Part shown: piece by piece, positions 1 through 14,145 of the stretch | How positions within the stretch are numbered: the stretch's first letter is position 1 | Layout of the letters: the number at the start of each line of letters is the position of its first letter | Virus record (IMG/VR): IMGVR_UViG_2778261031_000007 | Span: 1 to 34,551 of that record | Direction: 5' to 3' (one strand) | Source of the DNA: a virus | Taxonomy: Duplodnaviria > Heunggongvirae > Uroviricota > Caudoviricetes | DNA: 34,551 nt | The notes under the pieces: generated by a model | What the model saw: the letters and a program-made list of their open reading frames with translations, nothing else | What the model was told of the DNA's origin: nothing | Database searches by the model: none | Made by a program: the position numbers and the translations under genes

Positions 1-1023
1 TTATGTGGATGAAATGTGGATACCTCCTTTTAACGGATTAAGTGAAATTGCATCCTGGAGGAAATCAGGAGCGAGGTGCGCATAGGTCATAGTTTGCTGG
101 ATCGTGGCGTGCCCCATAATTCGCTGGAGCGTAAGTATATTTCCTCCATTAATCATAAAGTGAGCTGCAAAGGTATGGCGTAGAACATGTACAGCCTGCC
201 CTTTCGGTAGGTCAGGCTTAACACTGCGAAGCACCTTGCGATATTCCTCATAATTGACGTCAAACAAAAGGCCGGATTTCTTTGTTTTGATCTCACTAAC
301 AACTTCATCAGAGACAGGAATAATTCGAACTTTTCCGTTTTTAGTTTTGTTAAACGTCACGCGGTTATTGATGATGTGTTCCGCGCGCAGATTTTTCGCT
401 TCTCCCCATCTCGCACCAGTACTGAGACAAAGTAGCGTAATCCGCCGGGCATCACCGCTTACTGCATCCAGTAATTTGGCGATTTCTTCCGTGGTGAGAT
501 ACGTCATTTCGGGTGATTTTCGTTTCAAAGAGGGGAGGGCGCGGAGCGGATTTTCTCCGTGAAATTCCCCGGCATTTGCCAGGAGTGTAAACATTCCTCC
601 GAGATCCGACTCATCACGCCGAACAGTAGACTCTTTTACTCCCAAGGATAAACGGGAGCTTCGATAAGCGGCCATGAAACGAGCATTAATCTGGCTAACC
701 CTTGGATCATTCATTTCTTTGATGATTTTTTTCAACCTGGTTAGAACGCCGTTAGCATATGGCTTATTGCGTCCACCCAATTCCCACCATAACGGAAGCA
801 GATCTGAGAGATGACGTTGCTCTGTTGGCTTTTCAAGCCATTCCTTATCGTGCATGTGGCTGAGAACATAACGCTCAAAGGCCACTGCATCTGCCTTTTT
901 CTTAAAAATCCGCTGAATCCGACGTCCACTTCGGCCACGCGGTCTAACATCCACTTTATACCGTCCACCATCGAGCGCTTTAATTGCCATTGGCAAGCCC
1001 TCCGGTGAAACGAGGAAAGACAT
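1..1023 (-). CDS. int: Tyrosine integrase (P2 Int-like)
   Basis: 340-aa ORF; C-terminal catalytic motifs HVLRHTFA and TMTYAHLAPD (Tyr nucleophile); sits downstream of repressor as in P2. Confidence 0.9.
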   Translation of the reverse strand: MSFLVSPEGLPMAIKALDGGRYKVDVRPRGRSGRRIQRIFKKKADAVAFERYVLSHMHDKEWLEKPTEQRHLSDLLPLWWELGGRNKPYANGVLTRLKKIIKEMNDPRVSQINARFMAAYRSSRLSLGVKESTVRRDESDLGGMFTLLANAGEFHGENPLRALPSLKRKSPEMTYLTTEEIAKLLDAVSGDARRITLLCLSTGARWGEAKNLRAEHIINNRVTFNKTKNGKVRIIPVSDEVVSEIKTKKSGLLFDVNYEEYRKVLRSVKPDLPKGQAVHVLRHTFAAHFMINGGNILTLQRIMGHATIQQTMTYAHLAPDFLQDAISLNPLKGGIHISST

Positions 1024-1056: not shown

Positions 1057-1359
1057 TTAACCAATTTTCCTTTCGGATGGGGGTAAGTCCGTTGGCTCTT
1101 GCCCATAGTGTGCGAGAGCCGGAGCTATCTGCCCGGATTCAGGCGCAATTTTTCCAGTCATAAACCACAACGCATATTTCTCAAATCTGGGGTTGTTTAG
1201 TATTTGCTCAATTACTTCAGCATTAGGGATAGTTTTACCGCTTTCATATCTCCACAGAGCATCACGGTTTAAACCAAGCATTTTTGCTGTATCCGGGAGG
1301 CTAGTAAGTCTCTCGCTTTCACGCATGATTTTTATGCGCTCTCCAATAGTCATACGCAT
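1057..1359 (-). CDS. C: Immunity repressor C (HTH)
   Basis: About 100 aa from ATG at 1359 (GGAG 8 nt upstream); C-terminal WFMTGKIAPESGQIAPALAHYGQ closely matches recalled P2 C; track ORF starts at an upstream TTG (1374). Confidence 0.8.
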   Translation of the reverse strand: MRMTIGERIKIMRESERLTSLPDTAKMLGLNRDALWRYESGKTIPNAEVIEQILNNPRFEKYALWFMTGKIAPESGQIAPALAHYGQEPTDLPPSERKIG

Positions 1360-1454
1360 GTTGCAATTCTCCAACGTCTGTATTAATGTTTATACAAATG
1401 AGTTTGATTTGGGGCATCCGTCGCAAGAAATACCCCAAACAGGGAGATTATCAC
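1360..1454. promoter_or_regulatory. Divergent Pc/Pe lysis-lysogeny switch region (operators not resolved)
   Basis: 95-bp AT-rich gap between divergent repressor and cox-like genes; position as in P2. Confidence 0.4.
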
Positions 1455-1781
1455 ATGAATGAAGAACTATTGAGGGCATTGTTTAAGATCCCAGACCCCA
1501 TCACCGTCGATGAATTTGCCCGCCGCACGGGCAAGACCGAATCAGCCGTAAGAAAGTTGGTGGAACGTCGGCTCATCCCTCTGGCTACTGAGCGTGAAGT
1601 TTTAGGCGAGGAAGGAAGTTCACGCCGCCTCCTCATCTTATGGAACGAGTGGCTCGAAATGGTCTATGACGCAACGAAACAGCTTCCTCCTGAGCGTAAA
1701 GATTGGCGCAACCACTGGCTTAATAAAGCTAAGAAGCTGGCGGAAGATTTGGGATTAGGTTTTCTTAATTTTGCTGCATGA
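1455..1781 (+). CDS. Cox-like excisionase/early regulator
   Basis: First gene of the rightward early operon; AGGGAG RBS at 1441-1446; small basic protein; identity to P2 Cox is weak, call by position. Confidence 0.5.
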   Translation: MNEELLRALFKIPDPITVDEFARRTGKTESAVRKLVERRLIPLATEREVLGEEGSSRRLLILWNEWLEMVYDATKQLPPERKDWRNHWLNKAKKLAEDLGLGFLNFAA

Positions 1782-4084: not shown

Positions 4085-4206
4085 GAAACCAGAACATGCA
4101 CACACAAAAAAACCGCTTGCCATGCCGCAATCGGTCAGGTTACATTTCCGCTGCACCTCATAAAACGGGTGCCGGGATTCTCAACCCGATACAGAGCAAA
4201 GCGCAT

Positions 4207-4227
4207 AACCGCGCCAGCGGTTTTTTT
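4207..4227 (+). terminator. Intrinsic terminator (AACCGC-GCCA-GCGGTT then T7)
   Basis: Perfect 6-bp GC-rich stem, 4-nt loop, run of 7 T. Confidence 0.5.
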
Positions 4228-4239
4228 GTGCGTACTGTA

Positions 4240-4268
4240 TTGCCACGTCTTTTTCGCGTCAGAATTAT
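4240..4268 (+). promoter_or_regulatory. Candidate sigma70 promoter for the replication module (TTGCCA-N17-AATTAT)
   Basis: -35/-10-like hexamers with 17-bp spacing, followed by a structured leader with a UUCG-loop hairpin (4285-4298) and an 8-bp inverted repeat GTTGAGAA/TTCTCAAC (4321-4361). Confidence 0.3.
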
Positions 4269-4406
4269 GGCGGGGCGTACGGGGCCGACTTCGGTCGGGC
4301 CGGATTCTTTGCTCTCCGGTGTTGAGAACCCTGTACGTCTCGCCACCCCGAGATTCTCAACTCTGGATGGTGAGCTATTTCTATCACCGAGCAAAGAGGC
4401 CACACC

Positions 4407-4637
4407 ATGGCAAACCGCAAACAACAGCGCGCATACGCTGCGCGTCGTCACATCCAGACTGAAATCAACCGTAGACTTTTCCGCGCATCACGCGTCGCGC
4501 AAATCATGCACATCAATATGCTGCATGAGCGCAGCCACGCGCTATCGAACATCTATTCCGCCTCTGTTTTCAGCTATCTGGCGGATGATCTGCGCGAGCT
4601 GCAACAACTCTTCCAGCAGCAAAACAAACTCCATTAA
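4407..4637 (+). CDS. Hypothetical basic protein (76 aa)
   Basis: RBS AAGAGG at 4394-4399, ATG 4407. Confidence 0.5.
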   Translation: MANRKQQRAYAARRHIQTEINRRLFRASRVAQIMHINMLHERSHALSNIYSASVFSYLADDLRELQQLFQQQNKLH

Positions 4638-4709
4638 TTCCTGTTCCGGGCCTTTCCTGCACCTTGCGGCGGGAGGCCTTCGCACATCTGTAGTAAAGAG
4701 AATTGCAGC

Positions 4710-5099
4710 ATGATTGACGCTCATGACTTCACAAGATGGGTGCGCACACAGGACACCCGTCTGGCTCCCGTTCTTCAGGGATTATTTGATCTCTACATCC
4801 GTGGTCGTGACAACAGAGCACGCACCACAAAACCGGAGAATGCAGACACCCTTTATTTCACAGTAGACGACTGCTACCGCGTGGACTTCACACCACACGG
4901 GCTGGCGTTGCACTGCCTGACACCACACGGAGAATCACTGCTGGCGTATTACGACTCCCCGGCCTCCGTATTTGCGGCAATGCTGGCGCATCGCACTGCT
5001 GGCGGGTGTGCCTCGCTGAGTGAATACACCGCTGAATTTAACCGCCTTTCTGCCCTCTTCTCGCAGGAGTGGCAGCGCGTGACGGGATACCAGCCATGA
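4710..5099 (+). CDS. Hypothetical protein (129 aa)
   Basis: ATG 4710; stop overlaps start of A (ATGA at 5096-5099). Confidence 0.5.
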   Translation: MIDAHDFTRWVRTQDTRLAPVLQGLFDLYIRGRDNRARTTKPENADTLYFTVDDCYRVDFTPHGLALHCLTPHGESLLAYYDSPASVFAAMLAHRTAGGCASLSEYTAEFNRLSALFSQEWQRVTGYQP

Positions 5100-7906
5100 A
5101 TGAGTTTGCATGGAGCTGGAATGAACCACGGCCAGCCATTGATCCGGCCAGATTTACGGAGCACAGGCAGGAAACTGAAACCGACCTGCAACGCGCCATC
5201 CGTTACTACCTTGAGGCAGACAAAAAGGCTCTGGAAGAACAGGAAGCGAAGGAGGAAGCCTTTTTCGCACAATCCACCGTGGGTAAAAAACTCATGGCAT
5301 CCCTTGAGGAAGCCGGACAGCGTGAAAAGCTGGCACAAAGCATCATCAGCAAGCGTCAGGCAACAGAACAAGACCCGGTGGCCCGTGCTTTTGCCACACT
5401 GAAGGTGCTTCCCGTTTATCTGCGTGAACCTCTGAGCCGCCACCTCTCTTTCCTGCGCAAAAAACAGGAAGCCGATCGCCAGAAAGGCAAAAAGAGCTGG
5501 CAGGCTGAACGCTACGCGCGCGGAACCCTGCGCAAAATATTCGAACGTCTGGACCGCACCGATCACCGCTGGCTGACACCGGGTTATCGCTCCCTTGCCG
5601 GACGCGAACGCCTGGACGATTTGCTTTACCTGCCGCAGCTCAACAAACACCAGATACAGACGCTGGCCACCATGACGGCGGCGATGTTCAGCAGCACCTT
5701 CGAAAAACTCTGCGATGGCTTTGGCGCGACTGATGGCGAACTGACCATGGATGTAACGCTGAAGGCGTATCAGATGCTGGCCCGCATGGCGTTACACCTG
5801 CACGCCATGCCTCCACATTATGACGCACTGACAACAGACAAAGACCGGAGGAACGAACCGGACACGGAGCTGCTGCCGGGCGCAATCCTTCGCCTGACCT
5901 GTGCAGAATGGTGGAAACGCAAACTGTGGCTGTTACGTTGCGAGTGGAGAGAAGAACAACTCCGCGCCGCCTGTCTGGTTTCCAGAAAAACATCGCCCTA
6001 TCTGAGCCAGGACGCGTTAAGCGAGTTTCGCGCACAGCGCGAGAAAACACGCGATTTCCTGAAAAGTTTCATGCTGGAAAATGAAGACGGGTTCACGATT
6101 GATCTCGAGACGGTGTATTACGCGGGAGTAAGTAACCCGGTTCACCGTAAGGCAGAAATGATGGCCACCATGAAGGGGCTGGAACTTCTGGCCGAAGCCC
6201 GTGGCGACAAAGCGGTGTTTCTGACTGTCACCTGCCCGTCAAAATACCACGCCACAACAGAGAACGGTCATCCGAATCCCAAATGGAACGGGGCCACCAT
6301 GCGCGACTCCAGCGATTATCTGGTTAACACGTTTTTTGCGGCGGTCCGCAAAAAACTGAACCGCGACGGCCTGCGCTGGTATGGCATCCGCACGGTGGAG
6401 CCTCACCATGACGGCACCGTGCACTGGCATATGATGGTCTTTGCTCATCCGGAAGAAATCGACAGCATCGTGGCCATCACCCGCGATATTGCCATTCAGG
6501 AAGACCGCCACGAGCTGGGCAATGATATTACTCCGCGCTTTAAGGTGGAGTATGTCGACGGCTCCAAAGGCACACCAACCAGCTATATCGCGACCTACAT
6601 CGGAAAAAACCTGGACAGCCGCGCCGTGGATGGCATCGACCCGAAAACGGGCAAGCCACGCGTTGACCACGAAACCGGAAAATCAATGGCCGAGAGTGTG
6701 GAACGCGCCATCGGCTGGGCGCGCCTTCACCGGGTCCGCCAGTTCCAGTTCTTTGGCATCCCCTCCCGTCAGGTATGGCGTGAACTCCGCCGCCTTGCCA
6801 GCCAGATGGCACGCAACCCGGAAGGCCCGCAACGGCTGAAGGATGATGCAATGGATGCGGTACTCGCTGCCGCTGATGCCGGGTGTTTTGCCACCTACAT
6901 TGAGAAACAGGGCGGCGTACTTGTTCCACGCAAAGACTACCTGATTCGCACCGCCTACGACCTCGCAGATGAGCTGAACGATTACGGCGAACAGAGCGTA
7001 CAGATTTACGGGATCTGGTCACCACTCATCGGGGAATCCTCCCGTGTGTGCACGCACCCGGATAACTGGAAGCTGGTAAGACGTAAACCGGAAGCGGAAG
7101 ACAGCACCCGCGAAAATGGTTTTGACCTTCAGGGCGGCCCTGCCGCCCCTTGGACTCGTGGCAATAACTGTCCCCGTGTACAGGAAACGGACAACAACGG
7201 GACAGAACAGCCGGAAGAACGGCCAGCACCGTGGCCGCAGCTCCCTGACGGCGTTGAAGTGAACGAATGGATGCGCTCACTGAAACGGCACGAACGCCGG
7301 GCGCTGATGCGTTCGCTTCGTGACAAACAGGCAAAAAACAGCAGTGATGAAATGCAGAGCTGGACACAGAGCCGCAAACAGCAGCGGCCTTTGCCTGATA
7401 ACCACGAATTACTCGCTAGAGAATGGCGGGAGTCTGCTGAATCTCTCGGCCTGCATATCGGTGAACAACAAATGCAGCACCTGTTACGGGGCGGCAGTCT
7501 GTACGTTGACGGCAGCATCATTGCACCGCAGGGATTTGAAATTGTACGCAAACCGGATACCCGCCCGGACAGCCGAATCACGCAGCTCTGGCAGCGCCTG
7601 AGCCGTAATCACGGTGTAAGCAGCACGGAGATCCGCCATAACCCGGTCGCCAGCTATCTGGCACAGCTGGGGGCATCAGACCCTGAAGCGGCCACACGCC
7701 TGGCATCCACACTTCAGCAGGACCAGAACACCATGAAAACACCCGTTACCGTGCTTTCTGACATGCTGCGCGCCATCCGCGACGCAGAGCACGCACAGAG
7801 AATCAGTGAAACCACTGAACGTGCCCGCCGCAAAGCAGACCTGCTGCGGGGTGGCCTGACCAGTGGAAACAAAAACAGACAGAAACGGGATTCACAAATC
7901 CCGTAA
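5096..7906 (+). CDS. A: Replication initiator A (rolling-circle HUH endonuclease, P2 gpA-like)
   Basis: VEPHHDGTVHWHMMVF HUH motif and N-terminal AWSWNEPR match recalled P2 gpA; start set at ATG 5096 (coupled to upstream gene), alternative GTG at 5069. Confidence 0.9.
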   Translation: MNEFAWSWNEPRPAIDPARFTEHRQETETDLQRAIRYYLEADKKALEEQEAKEEAFFAQSTVGKKLMASLEEAGQREKLAQSIISKRQATEQDPVARAFATLKVLPVYLREPLSRHLSFLRKKQEADRQKGKKSWQAERYARGTLRKIFERLDRTDHRWLTPGYRSLAGRERLDDLLYLPQLNKHQIQTLATMTAAMFSSTFEKLCDGFGATDGELTMDVTLKAYQMLARMALHLHAMPPHYDALTTDKDRRNEPDTELLPGAILRLTCAEWWKRKLWLLRCEWREEQLRAACLVSRKTSPYLSQDALSEFRAQREKTRDFLKSFMLENEDGFTIDLETVYYAGVSNPVHRKAEMMATMKGLELLAEARGDKAVFLTVTCPSKYHATTENGHPNPKWNGATMRDSSDYLVNTFFAAVRKKLNRDGLRWYGIRTVEPHHDGTVHWHMMVFAHPEEIDSIVAITRDIAIQEDRHELGNDITPRFKVEYVDGSKGTPTSYIATYIGKNLDSRAVDGIDPKTGKPRVDHETGKSMAESVERAIGWARLHRVRQFQFFGIPSRQVWRELRRLASQMARNPEGPQRLKDDAMDAVLAAADAGCFATYIEKQGGVLVPRKDYLIRTAYDLADELNDYGEQSVQIYGIWSPLIGESSRVCTHPDNWKLVRRKPEAEDSTRENGFDLQGGPAAPWTRGNNCPRVQETDNNGTEQPEERPAPWPQLPDGVEVNEWMRSLKRHERRALMRSLRDKQAKNSSDEMQSWTQSRKQQRPLPDNHELLAREWRESAESLGLHIGEQQMQHLLRGGSLYVDGSIIAPQGFEIVRKPDTRPDSRITQLWQRLSRNHGVSSTEIRHNPVASYLAQLGASDPEAATRLASTLQQDQNTMKTPVTVLSDMLRAIRDAEHAQRISETTERARRKADLLRGGLTSGNKNRQKRDSQIP

Positions 7907-7980
7907 ATGAGCAAAAAACGTGCCGCGATATATGAAGCGCGCACAAAACAGGCAAGAGCGGGATTTCAGAATCCTGTAAA
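7869..7980. repeat. Imperfect direct repeat of about 38 bp (7869-7906 and 7943-7980) duplicating the 3' end of A
   Basis: ACAAAAACAGACAGAAACGGGATTCACAAATCCCGTAA versus ACAAAACAGGCAAGAGCGGGATTTCAGAATCCTGTAA; each copy contains a CGGGATT..AATCC dyad. Confidence 0.5.
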
Positions 7981-8011
7981 CGATTAATTAATCAACATAA
8001 GGAAAAGCGAC

Positions 8012-8971
8012 ATGAAAATTTGTATCGACGACGGCTCCACCAACATCAAGCTGGCATGGACTGAGAACGGCGAACGCCGCAACGCCATCAGCCCGAACAG
8101 CTTCAAGTCGGAATGGTCTGCGCCGTTCGGTGGCACGCATCCCGCGAACTACATGCTTGATGGCGTGCGCTATGGCTTTGATCCGGTCAGCGATCGCTTT
8201 GTCCAGACGACTGACACGCAATACCAGTACAGCGATGTGAATGTAATCGCCATTCATCACGCGCTGGTCAAATCAGGCATCACACCACAGGAAGTGGATG
8301 TGGTTGTCACCCTGCCACTGAGCGAGTATTTCGACACAAACGCACAGCCGGACATGGCCAACATCAACCGCAAAAAAGCGAACGTCATGCGCCCAGTGGA
8401 GTACCAGAACGGCGAAGCATTCACTATCCGTAACGTACGGGTTATGCCTGAATCCATTCCGGCTGGCTTTAAAGCACTGGCTGACATGAGTCCGTTTGAA
8501 TCCCTGCTGATTGTGGATTTAGGCGGAACCACGCTGGATGTGGCAAAGGTTCAGGGACAACTGGCAGGTATCAGCCAGGTGTTTTGCGATCCACACGTAG
8601 GCGTTTCTCTGATGGCCGATGCCGTACTGTCGGTGATGGCCACTAACGGTATGCGCACCAGTCACCACATCGCCAATACCATTATCGAACATCGCCATGA
8701 TGAAGCCTGGCTGCGCCAGCACATCCACAATGACGCGCATTACGCCAGCCTGATGGCGGTTATTCGTGAAAAGGAAGAAACACTGAAACAACGCGTGATC
8801 CGCGCGCTGGCGGGTTTTTCGGGTTACGGGCGGGTGATGGTTGTCGGTGGAGGGGCGGAGATTGTGGCACCCGCTATCCGCGAAGCCTGCGGAGTTAATG
8901 CGACTTTCATCGCGGACGGGGTGCCACAGTTTGCTCTGGTTAATGGGCTGTACGCAATGGACAAGGAGTAA
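8012..8971 (+). CDS. parM: ParM/StbA-type actin-like segregation ATPase
   Basis: 319 aa; IDDGSTNIKL, ISPNSFK, QYSDVNV, VHHAL, VMPESIPAG, DLGGTTLD, GGGAE and LVNGLY motifs collinear with recalled R1 ParM. Confidence 0.85.
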   Translation: MKICIDDGSTNIKLAWTENGERRNAISPNSFKSEWSAPFGGTHPANYMLDGVRYGFDPVSDRFVQTTDTQYQYSDVNVIAIHHALVKSGITPQEVDVVVTLPLSEYFDTNAQPDMANINRKKANVMRPVEYQNGEAFTIRNVRVMPESIPAGFKALADMSPFESLLIVDLGGTTLDVAKVQGQLAGISQVFCDPHVGVSLMADAVLSVMATNGMRTSHHIANTIIEHRHDEAWLRQHIHNDAHYASLMAVIREKEETLKQRVIRALAGFSGYGRVMVVGGGAEIVAPAIREACGVNATFIADGVPQFALVNGLYAMDKE

Positions 8972-8975
8972 ACCA

Positions 8976-9287
8976 ATGACGACTCCAACCAGACGGATAA
9001 GTTTCTATCTGAAGCCCGCCGCCGTCAAGAACGAAGGCGAAGCATGCGCCTGGCTGGACAGCCTTACACCAGAAGCCCGCAAAAGCGGCCAACGCGTAGC
9101 TTTTCTGGCCGGGCTGGCACTTCTGAAAATGAATCCAGCAGAGGCTTACCGACTGGCTGCATGGGCTGACGATGAGGCGTTATCAGTGACACAAACCAGG
9201 ACAGAGCGCCCCTTGTCACAGCCAGTACCAACCGCACAGATAACCAGTCAGATGGCTGGGAATATCCGGGCGTTGTTTCCTGAATAA
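8976..9287 (+). CDS. ParR-like small DNA-binding adaptor (call by position and size)
   Basis: 103 aa starting 5 nt after parM stop with AAGGAG RBS; same size class and arrangement as ParR. Confidence 0.45.
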   Translation: MTTPTRRISFYLKPAAVKNEGEACAWLDSLTPEARKSGQRVAFLAGLALLKMNPAEAYRLAAWADDEALSVTQTRTERPLSQPVPTAQITSQMAGNIRALFPE

Positions 9288-9293
9288 CACAAC

Positions 9294-9315
9294 ATCAGGG
9301 CGAGTTCGCCCTGAT
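9294..9315. terminator. Hairpin between convergent genes (ATCAGGGCGA-GTTC-TCGCCCTGAT)
   Basis: Near-perfect palindrome between parR-like stop and the convergent 198-aa gene stop. Confidence 0.45.
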
Positions 9316-9332
9316 GCACAAAGCATGCTAAA

Positions 9333-9929
9333 TCAGAATTTAGTATGCAATTTATCTACCAATCGCTTAGCCTCATTAAGTAGTTTTTGGTATTCCCTGC
9401 TATCGTTTTCCTGATCTTCATACGCTCGCCGAACACGCCATCGAAGAGCAAGGCATTTTAAGTTCCGGTAAAACCTCGGATTACGCTTGCGGCACTCTTC
9501 CATATAAGGTTCAAAATGGACATCAAGAAAGATTAAGGTAGAACCATAAACACGATATAGATACCGCTCATCATACAAACCGTTATTCACGGCATTAGCA
9601 CAACGCTCCCACTCATTAAAAATGAGTTTTAATGCTTTTGCTCCATCCGTTTGAGAATATTCCTCTTTTCCCCAATCAGCGATCGGAAAGTTATGGCGAT
9701 CCTTATGAATACGTAGCACTTCTGACCACGCATCGACTATGTCCTTGTTACGTTTATATGCAGCCTCGAAATCCAACGAATTTTTTTCGCGCGACGTTTT
9801 TCTTTGATTTCGTATGCTAATCACTGCAATAAGCGCACCCGCAGCTCCTGGATAAAACGTAGGGCTGGATTCCCAAATACTGGAAAAAATTTTTCCTATA
9901 TAACTAAGGGCAGAAAGAACTAGATCCAT
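9333..9929 (-). CDS. Orphan membrane-anchored protein (198 aa), unknown function
   Basis: ORF with one N-terminal hydrophobic helix (PGAAGALIAVISI) and a charged soluble domain; visibly lower G+C than flanking phage genes. Confidence 0.7.
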   Translation of the reverse strand: MDLVLSALSYIGKIFSSIWESSPTFYPGAAGALIAVISIRNQRKTSREKNSLDFEAAYKRNKDIVDAWSEVLRIHKDRHNFPIADWGKEEYSQTDGAKALKLIFNEWERCANAVNNGLYDERYLYRVYGSTLIFLDVHFEPYMEECRKRNPRFYRNLKCLALRWRVRRAYEDQENDSREYQKLLNEAKRLVDKLHTKF

Positions 9930-9942
9930 TGTATTTAACCAT

Positions 9943-9965
9943 AAAAAATGGGAGCCAAAGCCCCC
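9943..9965 (-). terminator. Attenuator-like hairpin plus U-tract immediately upstream of the 198-aa gene
   Basis: Minus strand reads GGGGGCTTTGGCTCCC then ATTTTTTA, ending 14 nt before the ATG at 9929. Confidence 0.35.
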
Positions 9966-9997
9966 ATTCTACTGAAACTACTCTAAAAAAACAGGAG

Positions 9998-10042
9998 TTA
10001 AACGTCCCAGTTTTCTTCGCTATAGATGCGGCGTACGGTCAT
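9998..10042 (-). CDS. Candidate 14-codon leader peptide (MTVRRIYSEENWDV)
   Basis: AGAGGAG RBS 7 nt before ATG; lies directly upstream of the hairpin at 9943-9965. Confidence 0.25.
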   Translation of the reverse strand: MTVRRIYSEENWDV

Positions 10043-10379
10043 AGTTAGTCTCCTCTTTTCAATCATTTAAACATCACTAATTTACTTTTAACATGGAGAT
10101 GGTTTTACAGTTGTCAACCACCTCCCCCAAATCTGTTGGGGTAAGCTATCACGCCTACCATACACATACAATGATGAGGCTATATCGTGTAGTCACACCG
10201 ATAAGGATAAGTTCATCTTCTTCGCTGCCTTAATGTGACCAAATATAGCACATTTGAAGCGATATACATCCTGTAATGATACTGCACAATAGTGCACAAA
10301 TTTGCACAATTTTTTTGAACGACTTTTTGCCCTTCCGGCCCGCGTGGCGGCTGGATCCGTCAGGGATCCGTGCGTGCAC

Positions 10380-10403
10380 AAAAAAACGCGCTTTTTCTGC
10401 GCG
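10380..10403 (-). terminator. Candidate minus-strand intrinsic terminator (CGCGC stem, then U7 on minus strand)
   Basis: Plus strand AAAAAAA-CGCGC-TTTTTCT-GCGCG. Confidence 0.3.
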
Positions 10404-10405
10404 CA

Positions 10406-10424
10406 GGTGACGGGGGAACAGCCC
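10406..10424. other. Candidate cos-like element (GGTGACGGGGGAACAGCCC)
   Basis: About 12 of 18 positions match the recalled P2/186 cohesive end GGCGAGGCGGGGAAAGCA; lies on the expected side of the portal gene. Confidence 0.2.
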
Positions 10425-10808
10425 GCGTTTCAGGGGGTAAATAGCATTCCCTGAACGATGTCGCAGCGACACAACAGAATGGCTGTATCGCTCACGCTGA
10501 GCCTGAAAAAGACGTAAGGTGTTCTGATTTGATGGGATGAAAGGTAAGGCCGTCAAAATCGCACTGAGGCGGCGAGAACATGCAGTCAGCGCGGCGGGAT
10601 TGTGTAAGAGTCTGGCCGTCGATGATAGCGATAAGTCGGAAGACGTCGTGAAATTATCTGATTGATACAGGAGCTGGAGAGTCGGGGCATAAATTTTTTA
10701 TGCCCCGGCGAAGCAGCAGACAAGCGAAGCGCGTCAGTGATGCGGCACCTTGCCGACCACACTTCATAAGTGCAAAATACGAGCAAAGAAATCAATGGAG
10801 GCTGTTCT

Positions 10809-11333
10809 ATGGTCATTAATTACAAGCAGTTACGAGAAAAACGAGATCAGGTAAAGGAGAGTTTTCGCCGCAATGAAGACCTGACCCCGCTTGTACGCAT
10901 TGCCCAGGGAATTGTTGATGCTTATGAAATCTCTCTGGAGCTGCCATCACAGACATGGACGGATAGCGACGGTAATCGCCAGCATTACGTTTCATGCGGA
11001 CTGGAAACGGCTGAAGGGTTTCGCAGAATGCCTTTATCTCAGATTCCTGCCGCTACCCCCAAAGCAAGGGGCGGCAATGATGAGCGAAAACTGATTTTCA
11101 GCATTGAGACAGTGGTTGACGACACACCTGGCGAAGTCGCCTTCGTGCATACTCCTCTTTCGATCGCAATGTATAACGATGAAATACAGGTTCGCGTTAA
11201 TAATAATATCGTGCCACTTAAAGAAGGTAATTCACCATACACCACCGTTTGTGAAGCCATTCAATATTACGTTCTCTCTGAAATTGATAATCTCAAGCCT
11301 GACGGCACCCAGAAAATGGTTCAACTCTGGTAA
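10809..11333 (+). CDS. Orphan protein (174 aa), unknown function
   Basis: GGAGG RBS at 10797-10801 with ATG at 10809 (track ORF starts at upstream GTG 10770); followed by a strong terminator. Confidence 0.65.
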   Translation: MVINYKQLREKRDQVKESFRRNEDLTPLVRIAQGIVDAYEISLELPSQTWTDSDGNRQHYVSCGLETAEGFRRMPLSQIPAATPKARGGNDERKLIFSIETVVDDTPGEVAFVHTPLSIAMYNDEIQVRVNNNIVPLKEGNSPYTTVCEAIQYYVLSEIDNLKPDGTQKMVQLW

Positions 11334-11338
11334 AAAGG

Positions 11339-11364
11339 ACAGCCCCATCACGGGGCTGTTTTTT
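11339..11364. terminator. Bidirectional terminator shared by the 174-aa gene and portal gene
   Basis: CAGCCCC-ATCAC-GGGGCTG then T6; portal stop codon lies in the loop. Confidence 0.6.
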
Positions 11365-12394
11365 CATCAAGAAGAGCATAAGAATTAAAACGGATCACCT
11401 CTTCGCCAAGCCAGTCATTGATGTGCTTCATGGCCTCCATAACGGGCATCAGCTCGTTAATTGCGTAAACCCGCGCGGCCTTTTCCACATCACCAAACGC
11501 ACTTTTTTCACCCGGCATCGCCCCCATCAGTTGCGGCGGAACGCGGTGCGCAGCCAGCACATCATCACGGGATGCCGCCTTAACATTCATGAACTCATCC
11601 TTTGCGGTGATCTGCTGGAACGGCAAAATTTGCACACCTTCTTTGCCCCCGTTGGGCGCATGAATGAGCACGTTTTTAAACGCACCACCACCACGTGCAC
11701 CCTGTAGCGTTTCTTTCAGGGAGTCCATGCTTTCGCGGTTTACCTGCGCTGCACCGATGTAGATGATACACCCGGCGTGGGATCCGTTGTCGTAATACAG
11801 TTTTCTGAACATGTCCGCCGAATGAGACAGGCTGGCCGAGAGTAATGCGCCGAGATATTCCGGCATGCCGTAGATTTCCTGGTTAATGTCAGGATTCATC
11901 AGGTGGCACACTTTGCCAGGGCGAAACTGAAACGCGTCCTTACCATCCTGCACATACCACCATGATTCAAGATCGCTTCCGCGTCGCATGTATTTCGCCA
12001 GGGCGTGCCGTAATTTAAGCGGTTCGCCGAGCATATTGCTTCGAAGCTCAAGGAATGCGTTACCGAACACAAACCAGTCCAGCGCCAGCGCCGAGAAATC
12101 CTGCCGGGAAAGCAGCGGGTGCGGAATATAGCAACCGAGCAATACATTGCGCTTAAAGTAAAGCGCAGACTGATGCCAGGACGTTTGCCGGGCCGCTCTT
12201 GCCAGACCGTACCAGTCCACCGGGGTTTCATACCACCGCCCGTTATCAGCACAGTACATATTGTCCAGCAGGTCATGCCCGGTCAGGCGATAAGGACCAT
12301 CAAATGTGAATGCACTGAGCGATGATTCTTTCCTGAGCGCATCAGCGAGATCAATGCGTGAACTCATGCGCACTTTTTTATTTTTTCTGCTCAT
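11348..12394 (-). CDS. Q: Portal protein (gpQ)
   Basis: 348 aa; SAFTFDGPYRLTGHDLLDNMYCADNGRWYETPVDWYGLA matches recalled P2 gpQ. Confidence 0.95.
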   Translation of the reverse strand: MSRKNKKVRMSSRIDLADALRKESSLSAFTFDGPYRLTGHDLLDNMYCADNGRWYETPVDWYGLARAARQTSWHQSALYFKRNVLLGCYIPHPLLSRQDFSALALDWFVFGNAFLELRSNMLGEPLKLRHALAKYMRRGSDLESWWYVQDGKDAFQFRPGKVCHLMNPDINQEIYGMPEYLGALLSASLSHSADMFRKLYYDNGSHAGCIIYIGAAQVNRESMDSLKETLQGARGGGAFKNVLIHAPNGGKEGVQILPFQQITAKDEFMNVKAASRDDVLAAHRVPPQLMGAMPGEKSAFGDVEKAARVYAINELMPVMEAMKHINDWLGEEVIRFNSYALLDEKTAP

Positions 12395-14145
12395 CAGAAC
12401 TCCATAACCGTGAAACGCTCGTTTTCTCCTTCGCCGCCAATCGGTTCGTTAATGACAGCAAGCATGGTTGCCCACGCAAGGTCGCCGTGGCTGATCCCCC
12501 TCGCGCGGTCCGTTTCGTAAGTGATAAAGCCGCCCGGTGTTTTCACCTTACGCACGGCGTTAAAGGCTGCGACCAGCTCGCGTTCGGCGCGATCGTATTC
12601 CCACCGCCCGGCGCGCATTATTTGCAGCATTTTCAGTACCAGCGACCGTTTTGATGACAGCGTGAAGGTGTACGGAATAGCAGCAGGGAAAAACCGTTTC
12701 ACTATCTGATAAACAGCCTCCCCGTTCCCGCCCGTCACATCAATGCCGATGTGTTCCACGTTGTAGCGATACGTGAACTCTTCAATGACTCTGGCCTGTT
12801 CTTCAAACTCCAGCCCCTGAACGCGTCGCGTCTCCACCGTTCGAAAACGGCCACCAGGAACAGCCGGAGGAGCCACCACAGACACAGCGCCGCTGTCGCC
12901 GTTGCCACTGCTGCCGTTTGCGTCATACCCAATCCATACCGGACGATTTCCCATCGGGCGGGGAGCAAAAGGTTTCCAGTCTTTCCAGTCGTCGTATCCG
13001 TCAACGCCGCAGCCAATCAGGATGTTCAGGTTAAATGCCGATTCCCCTTCGCGGACAAACTCACACATGTAGAGATTGAGGAACTCGTCTTCGGTGTTTT
13101 CATCACGGATTTCGTCAATATCGGTGTGTTTCCAGCCGTGATTAACCACATCTTCCAGCGTGACAATCTGCCGCCACGTCCGGTCAGGGCAGATAAGCCC
13201 GTTATGCAGCGTTTTCCAGTCCACAGAAAAACGCTGGCGTTTATGCGTGGCCTTTTTCTCGTTCCAGCGGTCGCCGTTCCAGTAGGCGTATGCCTCGTGC
13301 GTTTCGGTGGATGGCGTGGAGAAGTAGGTGCGCCGCAGTCCGCTGAGGGTTGCCATAGCGCCAGCCACCTTGCGCAGTTCAGCAAAGCGACTGACCCAGA
13401 AAAATTCATCAAAATAAAAATTGCCCGTATAGGACTGTGCCGACGCAGCAGAAGTGCCGAGAAAATGCAGCTCTGCGCCGTTGGAGAGGATGATTTTATC
13501 ACCCCCTTTCAGCTCCACATCAACTTCAGCCGCGGCCTTCTGAATAATGCTTTTAAACTGGAACGCCTGACGACGCGACGCAGACAAAAAAATCTGGTTA
13601 CGCTGGTAAGGTTGCGCCACATCGTCACGCAGCGCCATCAGCAGTGCTTCCTGTGCAAAATACCAGGTCGCCCCAATCTGTCGGGATTTCAGGATCATCC
13701 TGTTACGTATCCCGGCTTCCCTGCAAAGGGTCAGGGAGTCAAACCAGCCTTGCTGATGCCACTCCAGCCTGCTGATGATTTTTTCCCGCAGTGCGGCAAT
13801 CTGTTCCGGCGTGAAATGATTTTTGAGTTTTTTCGCCCGGCCTTTCTTTCCTGCGGCCATCACATCCGGCTGGCCATCATGCAGCTTTTTAAGCTGCCGG
13901 GTCAGCAGGTCTATTTCCTTAAAGTCACCGCCTGTTTTATTCTGTTTTTCAGTAAGCTGGATGAGGCGCGCATCAATGGACTGCGTGACACGCTGCACGG
14001 GTGGCGTTTCATCCCACTGGTCGCGTTTTTTCCACGCATAAATCGTGTTCGGGTTTATTCCCATCAGACGTGATATTTCTGCGGGCGGATAACCCTGCCA
14101 GTAAAGTTGCCGCGCACGCTGGCGCACAAAAGCGTCCTGAATCAT
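12394..14145 (-). CDS. P: Terminase large (ATPase) subunit (gpP)
   Basis: 583 aa, immediately upstream of portal and overlapping its start, as in P2. Confidence 0.93.
   Translation of the reverse strand: MIQDAFVRQRARQLYWQGYPPAEISRLMGINPNTIYAWKKRDQWDETPPVQRVTQSIDARLIQLTEKQNKTGGDFKEIDLLTRQLKKLHDGQPDVMAAGKKGRAKKLKNHFTPEQIAALREKIISRLEWHQQGWFDSLTLCREAGIRNRMILKSRQIGATWYFAQEALLMALRDDVAQPYQRNQIFLSASRRQAFQFKSIIQKAAAEVDVELKGGDKIILSNGAELHFLGTSAASAQSYTGNFYFDEFFWVSRFAELRKVAGAMATLSGLRRTYFSTPSTETHEAYAYWNGDRWNEKKATHKRQRFSVDWKTLHNGLICPDRTWRQIVTLEDVVNHGWKHTDIDEIRDENTEDEFLNLYMCEFVREGESAFNLNILIGCGVDGYDDWKDWKPFAPRPMGNRPVWIGYDANGSSGNGDSGAVSVVAPPAVPGGRFRTVETRRVQGLEFEEQARVIEEFTYRYNVEHIGIDVTGGNGEAVYQIVKRFFPAAIPYTFTLSSKRSLVLKMLQIMRAGRWEYDRAERELVAAFNAVRKVKTPGGFITYETDRARGISHGDLAWATMLAVINEPIGGEGENERFTVMEF

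Follow-up and report, generated by a model that had tools for sequence, protein, structure and literature searches.

The stretch of DNA considered here (the 'window') is the complete 34,551-nucleotide (nt) record IMGVR_UViG_2778261031_000007 of the IMG/VR virus collection, a P88-like (Xuanwuvirus), P2-like, integrase-bearing prophage of Escherichia coli that carries, immediately downstream of its replication gene (gpA), two adjacent genes, parM and parR, for an actin-like segregation ATPase and its adaptor protein. Judged from its sequence and from the relatives with which it was compared, this gene pair (parMR) is a complete type II (ParM/ParR) module that appears to be maintained intact by natural selection, and to belong to the conserved backbone of P88-like and related P2-like phages. 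The reading of its role that is favored below, to which we assign a probability of roughly 50%, is that parMR acts as a selected backbone segregation module that moves or partitions the transient circular phage DNA produced by gpA replication. An initial annotation of the window had already proposed that this integrase-bearing P2-like prophage contains a ParM/ParR pair preceded by candidate centromere-like repeats, and that proposal is supported by the comparisons reported here; three further elements of it (the label 'plasmid-type', the description of the module as unexpected in an integrating phage, and the suggestion of an extrachromosomal maintenance option) fared less well, and are taken up where the corresponding results are given.

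The parM and parR genes and the selection acting on them

The 319-amino-acid (aa) product of parM (Table 1) is matched by both Pfam domains of its family, each at full length (StbA_N, E = 3e-82, and the ParM C-terminal domain, E = 1e-68), by PHROG 691 ('partition protein') and, in the PDB, by the ParM protein of plasmid R1 (1mwk, E = 1.6e-92), with which it shares about 47% identity in the alignment. Its nucleotide-binding motifs are intact (IDDGST at residue 5, MPESIPAG at residue 145, DLGGTT at residue 169 and GGGA at residue 279): the first phosphate motif, the glutamate E148, the second phosphate motif with D170 and the GGG of the adenosine motif are all present. Of the 88 columns that reach at least 95% conservation in an alignment of 94 other ParMs, the protein matches the consensus in 78; D223N (R1 numbering) is an exception specific to its subclade. 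The assertion that this protein carries the full set of ParM/StbA motifs was thereby borne out, and the alignment showed no loss of the nucleotide-binding motifs.

Directly downstream of parM lies the gene for a small ribbon-helix-helix ParR adaptor, as belongs to a type II system. The initial annotation had described it as a ParR-sized gene beginning 5 nt after parM; its identity as a ParR holds (through the family match listed in Table 1 and the structural match described next), while the gap is in fact 4 nt, with the AAGGAG ribosome-binding site of parR situated within the 3' end of parM. A search of the PDB with the single ParR sequence returned no match, and success came only with a profile of its phage and plasmid relatives, which matched the structure of the pB171 ParR (StbB; 2JD3) over nearly its whole length (E = 3e-14). 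An AlphaFold model of the ParR monomer, with a predicted local distance difference test (pLDDT) score of 55, was used for secondary structure alone because of that low confidence.

The selective history of the pair was followed through 84 related loci, drawn from IMG/VR and from species-representative genomes (a scan of the latter yielded only three near-identical loci). In all 84, parM is intact at 319 aa and the 4-nt gap between the two genes is kept. Across 65 alleles of parM, the ratio of nonsynonymous to synonymous substitution rates (dN/dS) is 0.05. Along the common 103-aa type of ParR the same ratio is 0.115 in the N-terminal part, 0.47 in the linker and 0.05 in the tail, a partition that is also visible in the residues themselves: the N-terminus MTTPTRRISFYLKP is almost invariant, the linker (approximately residues 66-90) is hypervariable, and the C-terminal tail is conserved as NI[R/Q]A[L/F]FPE (NIRALFPE in the window), within which the motif N-x4-F (N-I/A-x3-F-P/G) is common to phage and plasmid ParRs. 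Such a pattern is what would be expected of a DNA-binding head, a flexible linker and a peptide that couples the adaptor to ParM.

At least two ParR allele families, of 103 and 104 aa, are found among the compared loci (L002-L084). In the databases ParR forms a long allelic series of 40% to 96% identity while the accompanying ParMs are at least 98% identical, and behind this series there is probably cargo-swapping recombination, at the hotspot described below, that breaks inside parR. Some BLAST matches to the region stop at approximately position 9030, within parR.

Distribution and relatives of the module

Of 5426 complete E. coli genomes, 1279 (23.6%) have a full-length parM, almost exclusively on the chromosome (1441 chromosomal sites as against 2 on plasmids). 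The module recurs in named phages: the region is 94-97.5% identical in DNA to that of the Escherichia phages P88, P884B11 (a member of the genus Xuanwuvirus), 520873, PhiR44_2 and Chuche and of the Citrobacter phage phiSM, and between the window and P88, P884B11, phiSM and other Xuanwuvirus phages the identity of ParM ranges from 95.6% to 99.7% (at least 98% in all but one phage). There is no substantive difference between the window and these phages, apart from its own cargo downstream of parR.

The records of those phages already label the two genes as ParM and partition protein, and the module is annotated in RefSeq. Moreover, passages in Pfeifer 2021, where P88 was picked up in a phage-plasmid screen and an episomal state was suggested (PMC7969092), and in Rousset 2022, where the module was suggested to allow such a state (PMC9122126), discuss what it might do. 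Both the presence of parMR in P88-like phages and its episomal interpretation are therefore already in the literature, and the description of the module as unexpected is overstated for a gene found in almost a quarter of complete genomes of the host species.

Plasmids provide a quite different picture. Among 72,556 plasmid records, only six ParM matches exceed 60% identity; all six are at least 95% identical, none falls between 60% and 95%, and at least five of the six records carry the phage gpA-parMR region itself. Every other plasmid match is less than 60% identical, typically 46-52%. A search of 5.8 billion proteins placed the closest ParMs from outside E. coli in Plesiomonas (63%), Hafnia (62%), Serratia (58%) and Enterobacter (54%), and in each of the four cases the gene lies in a P2-like prophage, in the interval from gpA (whose product has 785-907 aa) to the portal gene, and a PF10784 ParR follows it. 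The next matches come from an integrated plasmid-like region of Mangrovibacter (50%) and from an integrative and conjugative element (ICE) of Dickeya (49%).

The guanine-plus-cytosine (GC) content of parM is 0.55, which resembles that of the phage backbone, as against 0.44-0.47 for the parM genes of E. coli plasmids. A recent capture of parMR from a plasmid was accordingly considered and rejected, on the grounds of plasmid identities below 60%, the same locus in four genera and backbone-like GC content. For the same reasons the label 'plasmid-type' is misleading: plasmid ParMs are about 52% identical or less, and the nearest kin of the window's protein sit at one and the same locus of P2-like prophages. 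The comparisons instead mark parMR as a conserved backbone pair of P88-like (Xuanwuvirus) and related P2-like phages.

One of the loci, on a 226-kb contig labelled Vagococcus sp. (NZ_JBQPOM010000071.1), has a parM with 98% identity to that of the E. coli phages; assembly contamination or mislabelling is the most likely explanation.

The upstream repeats, the gene layout and the neighboring hotspot

The 105 bp upstream of parM contain two 20-bp dyads and no iteron array. Each dyad is set in one copy of an imperfect direct repeat, the copies being 74% identical and 73 bp apart; the repeat and its dyads had been recognized in the initial annotation, and only the length given there (38 bp) needs amendment, to 39 nt. 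The dyad form ACGGGATT-N4-AATCCCGT occurs in the 34.5-kb window only at 7885-7904 and 7958-7977, where 0.08 occurrences would be expected by chance. Copy 1 overlaps the stop codon of gpA (7904-7906). Both copies fold as RNA hairpins, that of copy 1 with an energy of -11 kcal/mol (z = -4.8). A terminator scan called no + strand terminator at copy 1, because no T-run follows its hairpin; with no such terminator between gpA and parM, parMR can be co-transcribed with the early replication operon.

Comparison with related sequences allows the repeats to be examined at increasing evolutionary distance. In approximately 41 of 83 related sequences, counted by the patterns listed for them, copy 2 is a perfect ACGGGATT-N4-AATCCCGT palindrome, from which the copy in the window departs by two mismatches, and the same dyads accompany both types of ParR. 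The Plesiomonas phage has two copies of a related element (GCGGGAC...CCCG) 72 bp apart, the first at the 3' end of gpA; the Hafnia locus contains a single related dyad, lying across the stop codon of the open reading frame (ORF) upstream of parM; and in Serratia and Enterobacter there are 20-nt inverted copies that include GGCAAAAACGGGA. Related dyads thus adjoin parM in the Hafnia and Serratia phages as well.

In E. coli, Plesiomonas and Hafnia, whose ParMs are 62-63% identical to one another, the element ATTAATCAA stands approximately 10 nt past the dyad and ahead of the ribosome-binding site. If it is read as a -10 element, the dyad would cover the -35 position, and the whole would have the appearance of a typical ParR-autoregulated promoter; this proposal is drawn solely from the conservation of ATTAATCAA across genera. 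Ribbon-helix-helix ParR proteins normally have a palindromic operator that overlaps the promoter, as in the parC regions of R1 and pB171. Taken as a whole, the comparative data favor repeats that are functional.

Table 1. Coordinates of parMR, its candidate control and binding sites, and other features of the window
Feature	Position	Strand	Remarks
Integrase	1-1023	-	Intact
Helix-turn-helix repressor	1057-1374	-	
Cox	1386-1781	+	
gpA, rolling-circle replication endonuclease, 945 aa	5069-7906	+	PF05840 Phage_GPA, E = 6e-131
Repeat copy 1	7872-7910	+	Perfect dyad ACGGGATT-CACA-AATCCCGT at 7885-7904; candidate ParR site (parC-like)
Repeat copy 2	7945-7983	+	Dyad GCGGGATT-TCAG-AATCCTGT at 7958-7977; candidate ParR operator over possible -35
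-10-like element ATTAATTAATCAA, then ribosome-binding site of parM	7983-8004	+	Ribosome-binding site AAGGAA
parM, actin-like segregation ATPase, 319 aa	8012-8971	+	Pfam, PHROG and PDB matches
parR, adaptor (StbB family), 103 aa	8976-9287	+	PF10784 Plasmid_stab_B, E = 1.6e-24
GC-rich hairpin between the convergent parR and DUF4760 genes	9292-9317	.	Strong; -19.2 kcal/mol, z = -5.9
DUF4760 gene	9333-9929	-	
PHROG 5091 gene, 187 aa	10770-11333		
Portal	11348-12394	-	
Terminase	12394-14145	-	

The upstream neighbor of the module, gpA, is inherited together with it. The Pfam GPA domain spans only residues 194-518 of the protein, and the last 400 nt of the gene, which encode its C-terminus, are found in only 14 records of the phage collection, all of which also carry parMR; among complete E. 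coli genomes, the 3' region of gpA is present in 1355 and full-length parM in 1279. Downstream, the similarity among loci ends within 0-20 nt of the parR stop codon, and 22 different arrangements follow it among 68 loci. Because parMR is constant and what follows it varies, the pair is the fixed left flank of the gpA-portal hotspot rather than part of its cargo. The hairpin beyond parR, which is terminator-like on the - strand, marks the point where the module ends and the cargo starts.

In P2-like phages this hotspot houses many defense systems (PMC9122126). The cargo of the window (9333-11333, between parR and the portal gene) is AT-rich, with a GC content given as 0.445 and ranging over about 0.38-0.45, and approximately 840 bp of it hold no long ORF. 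PADLOC returned no match for ParM, ParR, the DUF4760 protein or the 187-aa protein. The possibility that parMR is itself anti-phage defense cargo of the hotspot was rejected, given this result and the constancy of the pair.

Elsewhere in the early region of the window, two RNA families of Rfam are matched above their gathering scores on the + strand: isrK at 4153-4227 (62.8 bits) and C4 antisense RNA at 4263-4350 (78.5 bits). Both overlap the start of an Ash-like ORF (4096-4713), and together they constitute a P1/P7-style antisense-RNA control element within a P2-like early region.

Proposed role and alternative explanations

In the reading that we favor, dimers of ParR would bind the two 20-bp dyads upstream of parM through their conserved N-terminal strand, and the promoter-proximal dyad would probably serve in addition to repress the parMR operon. 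The conserved C-terminal tail of ParR would then link the complex of adaptor and DNA to ParM filaments, which would separate or position the phage genomes during the brief period in which they are circular, when gpA replicates them by the rolling-circle mode following infection or induction. What the phage would gain might be more effective replication and packaging, or the delivery to both daughter cells of copies still awaiting integration; a stable plasmid prophage would not be sustained. A sharper version of this proposal is offered tentatively, as a possibility in which we place distinctly less trust: that parMR constitutes a phage cytoskeleton with a minimal, two-dyad centromere, which separates or positions the monomeric circles made by gpA and is needed, not for plasmid inheritance, but to make lytic replication and packaging efficient or to distribute copies to both daughters before integration.

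The comparison with characterized systems supplies both the components and the precedents for such a role. The R1 ParMRC and R100 StbAB systems have the gene order of the window (sites, parM, parR); the window's ParM has both of the Pfam ParM domains and all of the nucleotide-binding motifs, and its ParR shares a Pfam family with theirs and conserves the strand at its N-terminus and the tail at its C-terminus. The differences lie in the divergence of the ParM from that of R1 (only about 47% identity), in the size of the adaptor (103 aa, as against 120-140 aa in the plasmid ParRs examined), in the upstream sites (105 bp with two dyads, as against AT-rich iterons that recur about every 10-11 bp over several hundred bp in the plasmid loci examined) and in the setting, which is a low-copy plasmid for R1 and R100 and an integrated prophage for the window. 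To the ParR of pB171 the likeness is one of profile, and the linker of the phage protein is much shorter.

Closer in function are two systems carried by integrating elements. In the SXT/R391 ICEs, the actin-type partition system SrpMRC reduces loss of the excised form of the element, which is replicated by its relaxase (PMC4489591). It is the closest functional analogy to the module described here, since it combines an actin-type system, an integrating element and rolling-circle-type replication of a circular form; it belongs, however, to an ICE rather than a phage, is only distantly related to R1 ParMR according to its authors, and is likened to the window by function alone. The AlpAC system of prophage CGP3 of Corynebacterium glutamicum is needed for efficient viral DNA replication after induction (PMC4446434, PMC5539076). 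There, too, the genes for an actin-like protein and a DNA-binding adaptor (with the site alpS) belong to an integrated prophage, and the resemblance is again functional only: AlpC is a highly divergent actin-like protein of a phage of a Gram-positive host, whereas the window encodes a canonical ParM, which scores 25.7 bits against Pfam ALP_N, below the cut-off of 26.3 bits. Both precedents concern transient circles of integrating elements, and it is by analogy with them that parMR is proposed to act on circular phage genomes.

Several observations weigh against the segregation role just described. The subclade of ParMs from E. coli, Plesiomonas and Hafnia deviates at positions that are otherwise at least 95% conserved (E53V, T215M/I, D223N, H275 and R300 in R1 numbering; residues 52, 214, 222, 274 and 298 of the window's protein), and these substitutions could alter the behavior of ParM. 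The parC region of R1 has about ten iterons, as compared with only two dyads here, and two such sites may not be enough to assemble a filament-capping ring of ParR. No promoter was called ahead of parM by a scan for the sigma-70 consensus. Within E. coli the arms of the dyads are no more conserved than the spacer (nucleotide diversity, pi, of 0.03-0.08 as against 0.05), a comparison made uninformative by the close similarity of the E. coli loci, and a synonymous change in gpA breaks dyad 1 in many loci. In a neighbor-joining tree all ParMs from phage contexts fall into one clade, for which the bootstrap value is 48 of 100, so that a single ancient acquisition of the phage parM is suggested and not established; the branch of Serratia and Enterobacter is only slightly nearer to the E. 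coli branch than to plasmid ParMs. Phages P2 and 186 fare well without such a module, and any benefit that it confers must be non-essential. Finally, no experimental study of the P88-like parMR module was found in the literature.

The same features of the repeats can be turned into an explanation that dispenses with a centromere, and this is the alternative that survives best, although we regard it as rather unlikely. The repeats might represent a duplication of the 3' end of gpA, or RNA hairpins that process or stabilize the gpA-parMR transcript, with the ParR sites lying elsewhere or reduced to a simple operator. Copy 2 does read in the register of the gpA C-terminus, including a TAA, so that a duplication may be the origin of the repeat; each copy folds as a hairpin, with more variation in the loops than in the stems, the arms show no extra conservation within the lineage, and there are only two sites. 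What tells against this explanation is that the two-copy layout recurs in Plesiomonas, with 72-bp spacing and diverged sequence, that Hafnia and Serratia retain related dyads beside parM, that the dyad is absent from the remainder of the window phage, and that a palindromic operator over the promoter is usual for ribbon-helix-helix ParRs.

The explanation that is already in print, facultative plasmid lysogeny, would have P88-like phages persist through parMR as low-copy plasmids, as an alternative to integration. In its favor stand the completeness of the partition module, its proposal by both Pfeifer 2021 (PMC7969092) and Rousset 2022 (PMC9122126), and the existence of a circular 34,461-bp 'plasmid' record (NZ_CP148288.1, outside the complete-genome collection used for the counts given above) that corresponds to a whole P88-like genome with its integrase. 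We nevertheless consider it improbable. The ratio of 1441 chromosomal to 2 plasmid locations in complete E. coli genomes points in the opposite direction, and the other 'plasmid' records that carry the module are either 228 kb to 1.4 Mb in length or a linear contig with IS1 copies (a 26.7-kb Shigella 'plasmid' match turned out to be of the latter kind). The window itself is an integrated prophage with an intact integrase, whose only replication initiator is gpA; no theta-type or other plasmid initiator was found in it, as would be required of an autonomous low-copy replicon, and with an integrase and no Rep it differs from the phage-plasmids of the P1, N15, SSU5 and Arsenophonus P2-like types.

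The circular record is not diagnostic either. Integrase-bearing P2-like phages that lack ParMR are also represented by circular plasmid records (pENTAS02 of Enterobacter soli and pESL4.2 of Pantoea), and NZ_CP148288.1 is therefore no evidence for ParMR-dependent maintenance. What looks like a true P2-like phage-plasmid, the 33.8-kb circular element paPv10 of Arsenophonus nasoniae (NZ_CP123514.1), has a RepA initiator and a ParA-like AAA ATPase; an integrase is not annotated in it, and its gpA-portal locus holds nothing that resembles parMR; several similar records of 33-36 kb exist in Arsenophonus. Stable plasmid lysogeny through parMR, and with it the episomal maintenance option raised in the initial annotation, is thus poorly supported.

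The module might instead act in trans, or while the prophage is integrated, for example through partition incompatibility with, or exclusion of, related incoming phages or plasmids, or as an anti-phage or anti-plasmid defense. Its location in a hotspot rich in defense systems (PMC9122126) and the many ParR alleles that accompany a nearly invariant ParM would suit such a function, which we hold to be quite improbable all the same: PADLOC recognizes nothing in the pair, which is a constant flank rather than swapped cargo and keeps its position across genera, and the variation of ParR falls mostly in the linker, beside the recombining hotspot. That the dyads and the DNA-reading N-terminus do not differ between the two ParR types argues against a diversification of specificity.

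Least probable of all, and very unlikely in our estimation, is an exapted cytoskeleton whose ParM filaments act on the host cell, for example on its division or shape during lytic growth, with ParR mainly as a regulator, an idea to which the subclade substitutions at otherwise nearly invariant positions of ParM and the minimal centromere lend some color, but with which the strong constraint on both the ParM-coupling tail and the DNA-binding head of ParR, as fits a triad of DNA, adaptor and filament, is at odds.

For the study of temperate phages, a practical consequence of these results is that parMR alone should not serve as evidence of a phage-plasmid lifestyle. The pair marks the fixed left border of the P2 defense hotspot, and should not be counted among the cargo of that hotspot. 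About a quarter of complete E. coli genomes carry parMR, under strong purifying selection. If the module does act on transient circles, it would be the third such case after SrpMRC and AlpAC, and the first in a model enterobacterial phage; it would then also indicate that a two-site centromere can be sufficient, and that a type II system has been adapted to a transient replicon in one of the commonest groups of E. coli prophages.

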